Shown here piece by piece: positions 147 to 4,815 of a stretch of 64,000 nt of DNA. The notes below the pieces were generated by a model. That model was not told the DNA's origin. It made no database searches and was given only the letters and a program-made list of their open reading frames with translations. Source of the DNA: Spirochaetia bacterium. Lineage in GTDB: Bacteria; Spirochaetota; Spirochaetia; SZUA-6; Bin103. The translations under genes and the position numbers were made by a program. Location: NCBI GenBank assembly GCA_965203905.1, contig CBDBDQ010000005.1:5120001-5184000 (forward strand), given 5' to 3'. Every line of letters starts with the position of its first letter. The stretch's first letter is position 1.

Positions 147-284
147 GGGGTCCTCCACAACCGCCGTTGACCGGGGACTACCGCCCCTTGCCGGACAGAT
201 CGAACAGCTTGCTCATGGGATCACGTTACGCGGCACCGGTGCCTGGATCAAGTGTCGAGGCTGTCGAGGCGGGGGCGTCTGGAC

Positions 285-1170
285 ATGGCGCCGCGCACCG
301 CCGGCCACGTCTACCTCCAGCGCGATGTCCGCGTATCCTTTTCCCAGCTCCGCCTCCGAGCGGAACACGTAGTAGTCGGTCACGCTCAGATAGGCGGCCA
401 GGAAGCCCTGCACCACCTTCTCGCCGCTGATGTAGTCGCGGATGCCGGTCTGCGGCATGATCGCCTCGTCCAGGAAGTCGAACACCGGTCGCCACTCGCC
501 CCGGTTGGCCATCGCCATCAGCAACTGCTCGACCCGGAACAGGTTGACCGAGAACACTCCCACGTCGCGGATGCTGAGCAGCCCGAAGTAGTGCAGCAGG
601 GAGAGGAAGTTCTCGGGATCGGTGAGGCGCTCCAGCGGGAAGCTCGGCTGGATGCGGGTATCCACCTGCTGCTCGCCGATAATGTCGCGCAGCAGGTCGA
701 AGTTGCCGTTCAGTTGCCGGCCCACCACCAGCAGGTGGCGCAGCTTGCCGTAGTCGATGCGCACGTTGGTGTCGATCAGGTAGGTCGGCACGTCCCGGTT
801 CGGGATGGAGTTGTCGAGGTAGTAGAGCACCATGTCGGTGTTGTGCAGATCGGTGGCGGCTTCCTTGGCGAAACGGTAGCCGTTGTACCACTCGCTCATG
901 ATGCCCATGGCGGTCTCCACGTCCTGGTTGAACACGCCCAGGTCGCGGTACGTCTCGACCAGGCGCCGCACCTCCGGCTCGGTGAGCCGACCATCTCGTT
1001 GAAGTCCGGGTGCAGGCTGATGTTCTTGCCGATGTTGAAGCCGCTGGTGACGTCGTCCATGGTGACCGGCGACACGCCGGTGATGAACAGGCGCTCCAGG
1101 CCGCCGCCGCCGCTGCGGTCGGCGCCGGACCTCAGGATGGCGAAGAAGTTGCGTAGAAGCCGCCGCCGTC
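285..1170 (-). pseudogene. AAA-ATPase-like / PD-(D/E)XK nuclease family protein, fragment
   Basis: Motifs FITGVSPVTMDDVTSGFNI, WYNGYRF, LLHYFGLL and SEAELGKGYADI; paralogous to 15114..16661. Frameshift near 985, truncated at both ends, apparent internal deletion at RDV|GVFSV. Confidence 0.8.
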
Positions 1171-2535
1171 GTGTAGCCAGAAACGGACGCTTCTATTTGC
1201 CGAGCATCTCACTGACGAGGTGCTTCTGAACTTGCCGCATCGCCAGTTCGTGTTCGCCCTGCCGAACGCGCTGCGCATCTGCTTCCGCCACGACCGTCGG
1301 CTGTTCGGCCATGTCTCGCGGCTGATCTACCACATCATCCAGGAGTTCTATCATCAAGCTGCCGGTAGGCCGATTCGGACCGGTGTCGTAATCGCTCACC
1401 AGACATTCGGCGACATGTTGCGCTGGAACCCTCATTTCCACGCTATCGTCTTGGAAGGCGGTTTCGACGAGCAGGGTACCTTCGTGTACATACCGCTTGG
1501 CCACCTGCAGGCCATGACCGAGCTGCTGCGTCGCCGGGTGGTCGCGTTGCTGGTGGATCAGAAGCTACTCGACCGCCGCTTCGCGCGTAACATGCTGTCC
1601 TGGCGGCACTCCGGCTTCAGCATTGACAATTCAGTTCGCATCCTCGATCGAGGTGTGCAGCGATCTCTGGCTGAATACGTCTCGCGCCCTGCGATCTCCG
1701 CGCAAGCGCTGGAACAAGATCCGCTATGAACCCTTCAAAGGTCGTGTGTTGTTCCACACCACATACTCGGACTATTTCAAGCGCTGGGAAGCCAGCGCCA
1801 GAAATCGTGCACCTCTTCGACGCTCTGGACTTCCTTGCCGAGCTCGGAGATTGCCTGCGGCAACTCTCCAGCACATCCCACCGGCGCGGGTGCAACTCAT
1901 TCGTCGTTATGGTTTGTACTCCTCGCGGATCAAGGGTCACTGGACCCGCATGCCCTACGTTCTGCAGCGGGCGCCATCAGGTTGCACGAGCTCAGAGGTG
2001 CCTGCAACGGAAACCGACGCTCCAGACGCGCGTGAACGTCGCCATGCGTGGGCCCGCCTGCTCGCTCGAGTCTACGAAATCGACCCACTTGTCTGCCCCC
2101 GCTGCGGAGCTCGGTTAGAGGATTGCCGCAGGCAATCCCGTGATCCGCAGTGATCCAGAATCCCGTGCAAATCATAAAGATCCTGGACCACCTGGTGAGA
2201 ACCGGTCGAAACGACGAGCTATAGCTCGTCGTCCGCCTCCGGGGCTCGATCCGACCACCCTCGACTGAACAGGTTACTCGGCGTTGAGCCGAACTGCCGC
2301 TCGGATTGCGGCGGCGGTTCCACCCAGGGCAAGGTGCGAACGCCCGCGTCGGCGGCAGTCTTCACCGAGCCTCATCGCAGCCCCTATGCGCGGCATTCTC
2401 ACCGGCACGCGCCGCCGTCAGCGGTCGTTATCGCTGCTTCAGCCAGCCGTTCGCCATCGTGCCGATCAGTTACCATCCCGATGCTGCTCGCGGTGCTTTT
2501 ACGCTCGTTCGCTCTCGATTACTCTTCCTATCATT
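1166..2535 (+). mobile_element. IS91-family (HUH/Y2, rolling-circle) element remnant; transposase 5'-truncated and frameshifted
   Basis: PSCSQKRTLLFAEHL, PHRQFVFALP, HUH motif NPHFHAIV, IRRYGLYSSR and WARLLARVYEIDPLVCPRCG; stop at 2268. An oriIS-like end (TTCCTATCA, ~2525-2533) abuts the truncated permease at 2536. Confidence 0.85.
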
Positions 2536-2892
2536 CACCGCCACCACGACGTTGAGGGCGGTGGCGGCCAGCCCCACCGTCAGCGACAGCCGCGCCCCGT
2601 GGATGAGGCGACTCAGCAGGTCGCGCCCGACGTGGTCGGTGCCCAGCAGGTACTGGGCCGAGGGGGCCTGCAGGCGGTCGCGCAGGTGGATCTCCTGGTA
2701 GCGGTAGGGCGCCAGCGAATCGGCGAAGATGCTGACCAGCACCAGGATCAGGATGACGATGCCGCCGGCGGTCCCCAACGGCTGCTCGCGCACCAGCCGC
2801 CCGAAGAACTTCCTCAGCCCGGCCTGGCCGGCCGCAGCCGCCCCCGCGACCGGCTCGGCGACGGCCGGCGTCAACGGAGATACGTCACCCAT
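2536..2892 (-). pseudogene. ABC permease (DppC/OppC-like) 5' fragment, truncated by the IS91 end
   Basis: 2536-2908 matches 9021-9393 (373 bp, no difference seen by eye); homology stops exactly at the IS91 end. Confidence 0.9.
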
Positions 2893-2910: not shown

Positions 2911-3256
2911 CTACTGCCGGATCCTGAGCCTTCCTGGTTCAGCGGTGACGATCGCTCCTGCTTCAAGCTCGGCCCCATGAGCTTCGAGGACTTGGTCGCG
3001 CACTACCGTCTGCTGGCGAGCGGCAAAGCCGACCAAGCGTAGAATTCCATGATGCGGCCGCTCGTGCACGACAGCCAGTTCGCCGAAGTCCTTGTCCAGC
3101 GTCACGAGGACGCGACGCTCGCCATGGGCTCTGGTGAGAATCTCGTCGTCGCCAGGGTCTTCGGGCGAATCGCCAGCGAACTCAACATCGTGGCCAGCGG
3201 CCCTCAGCCCACCGACGGCACCACCCCAGACGCACGAATCCCAGGAGCAGCCTCAT
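2911..3256 (-). pseudogene. DUF5615 (PIN-like, VapC45-type) toxin, frameshifted
   Basis: ATG overlaps the DUF433 stop. MRLLL-[extra G]-DSCVWGG...GHDVE...DDEIL...RVLVTLDKDFGEL; +1 frameshift at codon 6. Confidence 0.85.
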
Positions 3257-3510
3257 CCATCCCCGGGGACGAGGAGAGGTTCTACTCGCTCGCGACCGAC
3301 GACGCGGCGGGCGTACGCCAGACAGGCGAGGATGTCTTCAGGCTCGAGCCACGGATAGCCCTGCAGTATGGTCTCGTGATCGTCGCCTGCCGCCAGCATT
3401 CCCAACACGTGCTCGACGGCCAGACGACGGCCTCGCACGATCGGTTTGCCGCCGTAAATCCGCGGATCGGCAGAGATTCGCTCAAGGAGGTTTATTTCGT
3501 CTATAGTCAT
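3253..3510 (-). CDS. DUF433 family antitoxin
   Basis: RISADPRIYGGKPIVRGRRLAVEHVLGMLAAGDDHETILQGYPWLEPEDILACLAYA. Confidence 0.92.
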   Translation of the reverse strand: MTIDEINLLERISADPRIYGGKPIVRGRRLAVEHVLGMLAAGDDHETILQGYPWLEPEDILACLAYARRVVGRERVEPLLVPGDG

Positions 3511-4699: not shown

Positions 4700-4815
4700 G
4701 CTCAACAGCAAACAGAACGAGCGCGAAAACGCTCGCGGACCCCACCGCTAGGCGTGGCCCCGGCATGTGGAGTCGCGCAGCGACTCCCGTTTCAGTCGCC
4801 CCAGGGGCGATGAAT

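Follow-up and report, generated by a model that had tools for sequence, protein, structure and literature searches.

An IS91-family transposase gene in the window (the whole 64,000-nt stretch of Spirochaetia DNA analysed) is broken by five palindromes, termed h1-h5, that are true insertions of 10-23 nt. A sequence-only reading had described five short palindromes at the points where the transposase frame switches, and all five lie at the positions it gave. When the intact homologue P0002 is compared with the window by tblastn, every junction between its matching pieces coincides with one of the five. Alignment to intact homologues, which that reading had proposed as a check, shows that P0002 and P0004 lack the inserts.

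The interrupted gene (1160..2268, + strand) is a 5′-truncated pseudogene of the Y2_Tnp (HUH) type, with its frame broken six times. The Pfam family PF04986 (Y2_Tnp) matches window positions 1220-1726 with an E-value of 1e-10 and 42.3 bits, against a cut-off of 20.9; a second piece of the transposase matches it weakly, under the cut-off. Homologues with E up to 1e-3 number 199, and their usual full length is about 445 aa. In its translation aligned to P0002, the window copy features an H-F-H motif and a RRYGLYSSR stretch, which we take to be the HUH motif and the tyrosine-bearing C-terminal motif, respectively. The N-terminal zinc-binding domain PF14319, present in P0001, P0002, L019, L022 and L004, is absent from the window copy because of the 5′ truncation at about 1160.

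P0002 (405 aa; 93% identical over the first piece) matches the + strand of the window as six pieces in collinear order, in frames 3/1/2/1/3/2. The piece with residues 55-233 runs to about 1699, followed by residues 235-256 (1716-1781), 257-271 (1801-1845), 272-370 (about 1866-2117), 374-394 (2147-2209) and 396-405 (2233-2265). Alignments also reveal a 45-nt in-frame deletion restricted to the window copy (site 1985..1990, + strand), where a contig of run X1 has extra letters, and a 1-nt insertion (an extra C at 2145..2146, + strand) common to copy L045 of genome G001. The 3′ non-coding end of the element (2269..2535, + strand) is conserved in L019, L022, L044, L045 and L048. Its right boundary was mapped to about 2533-2535 from contigs of four runs, which diverge at 2533-2536, while the left end is lost in the window copy. 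Terminators, translational bypass and intein- or intron-like elements were considered as readings of the inserts and dropped, as no defining signals were seen and the frame is not restored by the insert lengths, which total 91 nt for the five.

Insert sizes for h2-h5 were determined by DNA alignment with sister copies, and each insert, all on the + strand, was folded as single-stranded DNA and scored against 200 shuffles. The first, h1 (1699..1712), is a net +10-nt insertion at AIS|LKK, a size derived from P0001, P0002 and P0004, which run uninterrupted across the site. It is carried by all five DNA copies covering the site (the window, L002, L003, L019 and L022). Its hairpin is weak (z -0.56; 55 of 200 shuffles as good), so that h1 is a real insertion whose hairpin is no better than chance. 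The second, h2 (1782..1800), is a 19-nt insertion after DYFK, 20 nt long in other copies, with a 7-bp stem at 1781-1798 (z -3.96; no shuffle as good); the window, L002, L003 and L019 have it, and L022 (G001) and L005 do not. A net gain of 20 nt after LAEL with changed flanking bases defines h3 (1846..1869), which forms a bulged 10-bp stem with a 3-nt loop (z -2.76; 3 of 200) and is found in the window, L002, L019 and the translation of P0001, and is missing from L022 and L005. After CPRCGARL lies h4 (2117..2140), a net +19 nt with an 8-bp stem and a GCA loop at 2120-2138 (z -4.24; 1 of 200), present in the window, L002 and L045 and absent from L019 and L022. The last, h5 (2210..2232), is a 23-nt insertion after TGR that contains a perfect 22-nt palindrome at 2211-2232 (z -4.20; 0 of 200); L002, L019, L022, L045 and L048 all lack it.

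Across six close copies in three genomes, insert presence is nested but mosaic. All carry h1; a further insert, h0, is found in G001 and G005; h2 and h3 are missing from L022 of G001; h4 is restricted to G000, the 8-Mb host genome, and L045 of G001; and h5 is restricted to the window copy. Junctions also vary. The alignments show bases replaced at h0 (6 nt by 25), at h4 (4 nt by 23), at h3 and at one insert of a neighbouring gene family, PDDEXK_9. The flanks are altered at h3 and at the +18 PDDEXK_9 insert, and clean junctions occur at h5 and at the +21 PDDEXK_9 insert. In an examination for target-site duplications, repeats of 2-4 nt at most could be drawn in the flanks, which are partly replaced.

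The concentration of hairpins is higher than the background of the contig. Perfect hairpins (stem of at least 7, loop 0-6) number 7283 in the 7.79 Mb of contig C5, and the 534 nt that contain the five palindromes hold three (h2, h4 and h5) against about 0.5 expected (Poisson P about 0.014). The earlier reading noted no such density in other genes of the window; as a correction, a further insertion of this kind lies in the window at 4767-4788. Among indels of 16-26 nt in other G000 repeats of at least 88% identity, a stem of at least 7 occurs in none of 63, as against three of five here, the control repeats being mostly functional or recently active DNA. For paralog indels of 14-30 nt, 17 of 416 fall in the top 1% of hairpin stability. 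A scan of GC3 phase for hairpins that put host genes out of frame gave no excess of out-of-phase flanks (84 of 7283, versus 476 of 50000 random sites), a weak test that says little because the IS itself has a weak codon signal and is uncallable by it.

Hairpin insertions also occur outside the IS. The one at 4767..4788 (+ strand) is 22 nt long, with an 8-bp stem and a GCA loop (z -4.13); it lies between two ABC-transporter genes and appears as a gap against the paralogous operon C5:6010261-6013501. Adjoining the truncated 5′ end of the IS is a frameshifted fragment of an AAA-ATPase-like/PDDEXK_9 paralog (PF08011; 213..1150, - strand), recognized by three-frame translation, with at least 12 paralogs. 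This family holds two in-frame hairpin inserts, the +18 (in 5 of 12 paralogs) and the +21. Since the family is unrelated to the IS, the process is not confined to HUH genes. On the other side, an ABC-permease-like ORF (2470..2892, - strand, from the ORF list), so named from its translation rather than from a family search, is an N-terminal fragment cut at the IS end; paralog contigs diverge at 2536.

Hairpin inserts recur in broken copies of this IS clade from distant genomes. Of 73 loci there, 32 yield at least two tblastn pieces, and at 20 junctions 8-160 additional nt are present; by their folds these are mostly hairpins, with z-scores from +0.74 to -3.1 that the flanking sequence dilutes. 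AT-rich hairpins are found in the AT-rich genome G028; one of them has a copy elsewhere within its element, and one hairpin occupies an identical site in four copies. The recurrence across hosts is in keeping with a link to elements with a single-stranded DNA stage, and points to some means by which small hairpins are written into elements of this type.

Some inserts resemble one another. The third and fourth palindromes had been said to share one core in opposite orientations, and 15 nt of h4 indeed match the reverse complement of h3 exactly, at a distance of 265 nt (p 0.0005). A 10-mer is common to h2 and the h1 region 72 nt upstream (p 0.02). By these identities, h4 is an inverted copy of the h3 core, and h2 a copy of the h1 region. 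The 10-mer covers both inserted and ancestral bases, which fits templated copying better than the movement of a discrete unit. For h5, no template was found within 300 nt (p 0.67), and none beyond chance within the same distance for h0, both PDDEXK_9 inserts, the 4767 insert or an insert at C5:5088159 (p 0.17-0.67). With both arms new and no local template, these founder hairpins have no demonstrated source.

We tentatively propose that the hairpins arose by strand switching, as de novo or templated insertions, and were retained in copies where they are neutral. The inserts would have accumulated one by one in non-functional IS91-family copies of a Spirochaetia genus, each made in place as a compact self-complementary segment of 10-25 nt, often at the expense of a few target bases, and none would be a member of a repeat family. 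Later inserts may have been copied from earlier ones, h4 from h3 by inversion and h2 from the h1 region through a 4-nt microhomology. The generator would be strand switching or nascent-strand fold-back in replication or repair synthesis, where a very stable mini-hairpin, often with a G-N-A loop, could hold a misaligned 3′ end. Published accounts describe G-N-A mini-hairpins as extraordinarily stable and place them at ssDNA priming sites (PMC13037366), report hairpins created by template switching (PMC8794818, PMC5453318), and report its stimulation by DNA-protein crosslinks (PMC6357072). IS91 is described as having a single-stranded circle and subterminal palindromes (PMC13181058). Such a circle, together with covalent transposase-DNA complexes, may make the element especially exposed. 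An exposed single-stranded stage would explain the recurrence in this IS clade across unrelated hosts. As the copies are already dead, frameshifting inserts would be neutral and persist; in functional genes, only in-frame inserts would survive. Both a strand bias of the loops and a link to the single-stranded intermediate are inferred here.

Template-switch mutations, as in the Ripley model, the E. coli QP reporters and the four-point TSM model, share several features with these inserts. In both, one event makes or perfects a stem and brings clustered base changes together with a junction indel. Replacement of junction bases in the same event is seen here at h0, h4, h3 and the +18 PDDEXK_9 insert. 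Template switching also copies nearby sequence, directly or inverted, which here is seen for h4 and h2 and is unseen for h5, h0, the PDDEXK_9 inserts, 4767 and C5:5088159. They differ in that the new arm of a template-switch mutation comes from an existing neighbour, whereas both arms are novel for most of the inserts and no template was found. A series of such events within one 1.3-kb element appears to be undescribed in the template-switch literature searched. As separate observations against strand switching, its classical template-switch or fold-back form takes one arm from neighbouring sequence while both arms are new here, and specificity for the IS is drawn from few events.

A second explanation, less probable but still in play, is that the hairpins are ultra-small mobile elements defined by structure, each a hairpin with a few flanking bases. 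They would move by cut-and-paste or by copying, perhaps through the Y2 transposase, and would preferentially target single-stranded mobile DNA. The near-complete inverted copy of h3 at h4 and the G028 hairpin at a second site within one IS copy would suit such elements, and the clearest case for them is a conserved 44-nt hairpin element. This element, with conserved flanks and covarying stems, occupies one site in the IS copy L088 and another in L090, and is also found within an amidase ORF and a viral baseplate-like ORF, and as a direct tandem array. Its members (L088, L090, L125, L218 and L222) have conserved blocks of 13 nt on the left and 6 nt on the right, a variable stem and a C-GCA-G centre. 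The L218 member has 15 nt in common with the h3/h4 core. In G000, the pattern gave no true match, only the h3/h4 core resembling the L218 member, and a census of loop types showed no excess of C-GCA-G hairpins there. A metagenome scan, covering 20 of 64 parts of the collection, produced 119 pattern matches in 117 loci, of which six have a stem of at least 5 and three are full elements (L125, L217 and L218). L162 has the unit in tandem with a degenerate stem, and the remaining matches look chance-like. About 400 stretches of the collection contain the pattern, mostly by chance. Rfam holds no family for the element, with one chance-level match elsewhere (E 0.65), and the tandem array has no match in the phage and plasmid collections. 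With its different sites in two related IS copies and its occurrence in phage genes, the 44-nt element acts as a sequence that is copied or mobile would, and unlike a de novo mutation. Its presence in IS copies and phage genes shows that very small hairpin elements copied into mobile-element genes exist.

The ends of truncated IS copies bear on the same explanation. The 5′ end of L002 falls at h0 and that of L045 at h3, the 3′ end of L003 lies 6 nt past h2, and L044 has a deletion at h1. By a rough count of about 16 breakpoints, about 5 are no more than 6 nt from a hairpin site, versus about 2.5 expected, a coincidence that is suggestive only. The IS91 terIS is reported as a palindrome beside a cleavage tetranucleotide, and the IS91-family enzyme as recognizing such a palindrome on single-stranded DNA (PMC13181058). 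The host element here is itself of the IS91 family, and its truncated copies often end at hairpin sites. Unlike terIS and oriIS, the inserts lie within the transposase gene, and they differ in sequence both among themselves and from the 3′ end of the element.

Against mobility stands copy number. A genome-wide count of the palindromes, suggested earlier as a check, gave no family: exact searches and searches allowing up to 3 mismatches found no insert in G000 outside the paralogous IS copies, so that every window hairpin occurs once, or twice inside one element. The 44-nt element is likewise single-copy in the host genomes examined, and it was not found in 92 genomes of the order, where two pattern matches have no complementary stems. 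Alignments reveal no common target motif at the insertion sites, the junctions show substituted bases instead of a clean separation, h2 reproduces ancestral bases along with inserted ones, and no active transposase of the clade was found in G000.

The inserts can also be compared with known families of small palindromes. REP/BIME sequences, mobilized with RAYT (Y1 HUH) enzymes, are 20-40 nt palindromes on which HUH enzymes act as single-stranded hairpins, and occasional intragenic copies have been reported (PMC3733652). REPs come in high-copy families, marked by a conserved tag and accompanied by a RAYT gene, whereas the window hairpins have a copy number of 1-2 and no Y1_Tnp gene. A search of G000 (98.7% complete) for RAYT/Y1_Tnp (PF01797) gave 0 matches, with a control search positive in 6 of 14 genomes; the sequence-only reading had proposed looking for such genes. 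Its idea of ultra-small parasites is unsupported in the REP/RAYT sense, the inserts being unique and having neither RAYT nor parent, but stays viable in that the 44-nt element shows that copied tiny hairpins exist. Cyanobacterial SDRs, Rickettsia palindromic elements and yeast mitochondrial GC clusters are tiny hairpin inserts in genes or mobile elements, sometimes in frame, and the 44-nt element resembles them. These are multi-copy families within one genome, in contrast to the unique window hairpins and to the 44-nt element, single-copy in the genomes examined.

Excision offers a different source of palindromes. Nearly precise loss of a MITE or IS could leave its inverted-repeat ends joined, and the excision of Tn10-type elements leaves such a small palindrome of two inverted ends. 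Joined ends would have both arms foreign to the target, as seen here; the alike h3 and h4 could share one parent; and in the alignments a short repeat flanks h5, with 2-3-nt repeats drawable at h2 and h3. We consider this origin unlikely. The palindromes resemble Tn10-type remnants, but no matching parent element is present here: a search of G000 for paired arms (10-11 nt) of h3, h4 and h5 within 4 kb found only the hairpins themselves. Within 1.3 kb, the excision reading would call for at least six distinct parent families. Base composition follows the host, as in the AT-rich G028, which fits a local origin but would equally result from local parents.

The hairpins might instead be kept because they help defective copies to spread, as priming signals on circular ssDNA or as pseudo-termination signals for the transposase, and this too has a low probability. 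The copies that multiplied are hairpin-bearing and frameshifted, with h1 in all copies of three genomes and one G028 hairpin at an identical site in four. GAA and GCA loops are common on the coding strand, and such mini-hairpins are reported to mark primase sites of ssDNA phages (PMC13037366). Hairpins are also found in the non-mobile paralog family, however; h5 is a plain palindrome and h1 barely folds, and the copies resemble decaying, variously truncated fragments, not a thriving non-autonomous family.

Silencing by the host, suggested earlier, in which a defence system writes hairpins into transposase genes, found no support beyond the density of frameshifting inserts in one transposase lineage and is very unlikely: no candidate machinery emerged, non-transposase genes contain in-frame inserts, the first insert already kills the gene and leaves five more superfluous, and h1-h5 have no terminator-like T runs.

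The hairpins are polymorphic, differing between copies and between metagenomes. That h5 is found in one assembled copy among the genomes searched could point to an assembly or sequencing artefact, a reading that can be dismissed almost entirely, since h1-h4 are common to the independently assembled genomes G000, G001 and G005, contigs of runs X15, X16 and X3, from two studies, cover h5 gap-free, and a run X3 contig is an h3-free allele, missing exactly 20 nt at that site. Contigs from other studies, of which several carry h5 and one lacks h3, identify the inserts as natural polymorphisms, and the artefact reading is refuted as far as contigs can show.

More broadly, and speculatively, a clade-specific and hitherto undescribed process could seed and then re-copy hairpins of less than 50 nt in HUH/Y2 transposons. 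It would be either a mutational syndrome of the single-stranded, protein-linked intermediate or a new class of micro-elements defined by structure, with the 44-nt family as its clearest case, that colonizes IS91-type and phage genes without becoming genomic repeats. We regard this as doubtful. If the rolling-circle link is true, these copies would be a natural record of errors or parasitism in single-stranded transposition, which is hard to observe directly. In that case they would also represent a distinct class of spontaneous bacterial mutation, in which a hairpin of about 20 nt arises whole in a single step and is later re-copied. Structured DNA or RNA elements, HUH pseudo-termination sites and in-frame protein insertions could all originate in this way. 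Were the cause a general mutational bias of the host, the hairpins would still be a useful, if less surprising, Spirochaetia signature. There is a consequence for annotation too: such genes are called as several separate ORFs, and sequencing error is readily blamed for the breaks.

The 5′-truncated IS91-family transposase gene of the window (1160–2268, plus strand; Pfam Y2_Tnp, E 1e-10) carries five short palindromes, h1–h5. A sequence-only reading had placed them at 1699–1708, 1781–1798, 1846–1869, 2120–2138 and 2211–2232, and all five are confirmed. The same reading had the reading frame switching at the palindromes, which holds as well. In tblastn against the unaltered window, the intact protein P0002 aligns as collinear pieces in frames 3, 1, 2, 1, 3 and 2, and each junction corresponds to one palindrome. 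P0002 (405 aa, 93% identical) and P0004 (335 aa, 85%) are the nearest intact proteins; a large protein collection yielded 199 homologues at E ≤ 1e-3 among 2756 candidates, the full-length ones mostly of ~445 aa with a zinc-binding domain and Y2_Tnp. Folded as single-stranded DNA, h2, h3, h4 and h5 are far more stable than their shuffles, and h1 folds no better than chance (z −0.56; 55 of 200 shuffles as good). Perfect stems of at least 7 bp number 3 in 534 nt, against ~0.5 predicted from the genome-wide density (7283 such hairpins in 7.79 Mb).

The five palindromes are insertions that are polymorphic among copies of the IS. Four further fragments of the element lie in the same genome, with more in the same-genus genomes G001, G004 and G005, and presence or absence of each insert was taken from alignments of the copies. 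The h1 insert (net +10) occurs in all five DNA copies that cover the site and is absent from proteins P0001, P0002 and P0004. The h2 insert (net +20; +19 in the window) is shared with loci L002, L003 and L019 and absent from L022 and L005, while h3 (net +20) is found in the window, L002, L019 and the translation of P0001, and not in L022 or L005. The h4 insert (net +19) is present in the window, L002 and L045 and absent from L019 and L022; h5 (net +23) is seen in the window only, being absent from L002, L019, L022, L045 and L048. A comparable sixth insert, h0, lies upstream of the window copy's truncation point, with 25 nt replacing 6 in L019 and L022 and absent from L004 and L047, and L002 has one more insert of 8 nt. 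The distribution across copies is not tree-like. Base differences show that the IS copies are mosaics, and recombination among them is the simplest explanation for the incompatible insert patterns.

Hairpin inserts also occur in this IS clade in other hosts. More than one tblastn piece was obtained in 32 of the 73 loci with a copy, and 20 junctions contain 8–160 extra nt, some representing one event in several loci. Most of the segments that were folded form hairpins, and GAA and GCA loops are frequent among them. A copy in an AT-rich genome (L033, G028:C47, 1440–2660, minus strand) contains at least seven strong AT-rich hairpins with stems of 10–17 bp; in G028, one hairpin occupies a shared site in four copies, L033 among them, and stands at another site in L033 as well.

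Similar inserts are found outside the IS. Of 416 paralog indels of 14–30 nt in the window's genome, 17 reach the hairpin stability of the best-folding 1% of random genome segments; at 16–18 nt, 10 of 104 do so. Two of the 17 are independent in-frame hairpin inserts in the PDDEXK_9 paralog family. One adds 18 nt, has a 3-nt loop and is carried by 5 of 12 paralogs (contig C5:136320, 5781144, 6077xxx, 6682xxx and 7336xxx); the other adds 21 nt, has an 8-bp stem (C5:2750570) and is missing from three paralogs. A third belongs to the window itself: compared with a paralogous ABC-transporter operon (C5:6010261–6013501), the window has an extra 22-nt hairpin (4767–4788; 8-bp stem, GCA loop) and an extra 16-nt palindromic segment (4800–4815), both between the permease and binding-protein genes. 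The PDDEXK_9 and 4767–4788 inserts indicate that the process is not strictly confined to the IS. Nor is it a general feature of repeats, since none of 63 indels of 16–26 nt in other repeats (identity ≥ 88%) has a stem of at least 7.

A mutational origin is the best-supported account of these hairpins. Compact hairpins would be written, one event each, by strand switching or fold-back of the nascent strand, then re-copied inside the element, and retained because the IS copies were already dead; an IS91-type single-stranded, protein-linked life cycle would increase the rate. Shared stretches were sought with a longest-common-substring test scored against palindrome-preserving shuffles. A 15-nt identity links h4 to the reverse complement of h3, which lies 265 nt upstream (p 0.0005). 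For h2 the match is a 10-mer of the h1 region, 72 nt upstream (p 0.02); this 10-mer takes in inserted as well as ancestral bases, and the copied stretch begins at a 4-nt microhomology. No local template beyond chance was found for h5, h0, both PDDEXK_9 inserts or the window insert at 4767. The founder hairpins are the weak point of the account: each of their two arms is new and could not be traced, which is not the expectation from classical models. Several insertion events replaced a few target bases. Published work describes template switching as able to write hairpins and as stimulated by DNA–protein crosslinks (PMC8794818, PMC5453318, PMC6357072), a single-stranded circle as the moving form of IS91, with palindromes beside a tetranucleotide at its ends (PMC13181058), and G-N-A mini-hairpins as exceptionally stable and marking ssDNA priming sites (PMC13037366).

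Ends of truncated copies meet hairpin sites more often than we would expect, on small numbers. The L002 and L045 5′ ends, the L003 3′ end and an internal deletion in L044 have endpoints no more than 6 nt from the h0, h3, h2 and h1 sites, and the L045 junction has another small palindrome as filler. A Ku homologue (C5:3310504–3311049, E 1.3e-40) makes end-joining repair probably available in this spirochaete.

The main rival holds that tiny, structure-defined mobile elements are the hairpin source, and real support for it comes from a 44-nt element whose flanks are conserved and whose stems covary. On its left is a conserved block of 13 nt and on its right another conserved block; the stem between them varies around the centre C-GCA-G. 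Two genomes carry it in IS91-clade genes, each at a different site (L088 1820–1900; L090, equal to L217, 700–780). It is also found inside an amidase/SleB-like ORF (L125 ~470–530), close to the beginning of a viral baseplate-like ORF (L222 1195–1240), in an AT-rich intergenic spacer (L218 ~290–340) and, at one contig end, repeated in direct tandem for at least 2.5 units (last 135 nt of L162, minus strand). In L088 the 44-nt insert sits at the HUH-motif codons, and the 5′ ends of three fragments, L003, L044 and L049, lie within ~20 nt of those codons. There is a single copy in each of the host genomes G061 and G062, and neither Rfam nor the phage and plasmid collections gave a match to the element. 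The window's inserts do not form a repeat family: paralogous IS copies aside, no insert has a second match in the 8-Mb genome when up to 3 mismatches are allowed, and hairpins with a C-GCA-G centre show no genome-wide excess.

A parent element was also sought, and other than at the hairpins the genome gave no matching 10–11-nt arm pairs within 4 kb. A RAYT connection is unsupported: a search for Y1_Tnp genes gave none in this genome, although its control gave hits in 6 of 14 reference genomes. Assembly artefact is excluded by Logan contigs (contigs, not raw reads), which span h5 without gaps in runs X15 and X16 of one study and X3 of another, together with three independent genome assemblies. 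One X3 contig is shorter by exactly 20 nt at h3, and X15 also contains the L002-type variant. Runs with parts of the stretch are labelled as sponge, coral-reef, biofilm and other metagenomes.

Searches of an open-access library gave no account of small hairpins being inserted serially into genes of the IS91 family. We regard the inserts as a variant of two known kinds, template-switch hairpin mutagenesis and miniature palindromic inserts, with a modest chance that they are something more distinct.

The IS copy adjoins a frameshifted PDDEXK_9-family fragment (213–1150, minus strand) of an AAA-ATPase-like/PDDEXK_9 multi-copy family, and its 3′ end (~2533–2535) interrupts a permease-like ORF. Short minus-strand ORFs flank it (3–158, 2911–3105 and 3253–3510), whose translations suggest remnants of small toxin–antitoxin-type genes. 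A different IS91 subfamily has four copies in this genome, L006–L009 (C5:5298058–5301621, 5308693–5312256, 6312222–6315785 and 2163244–2166807), with a long open Y2_Tnp frame of 431–437 aa in which no breaks were seen. An upstream tyrosine-recombinase-like ORF accompanies L007, L008 and L009, and L006 diverges upstream.
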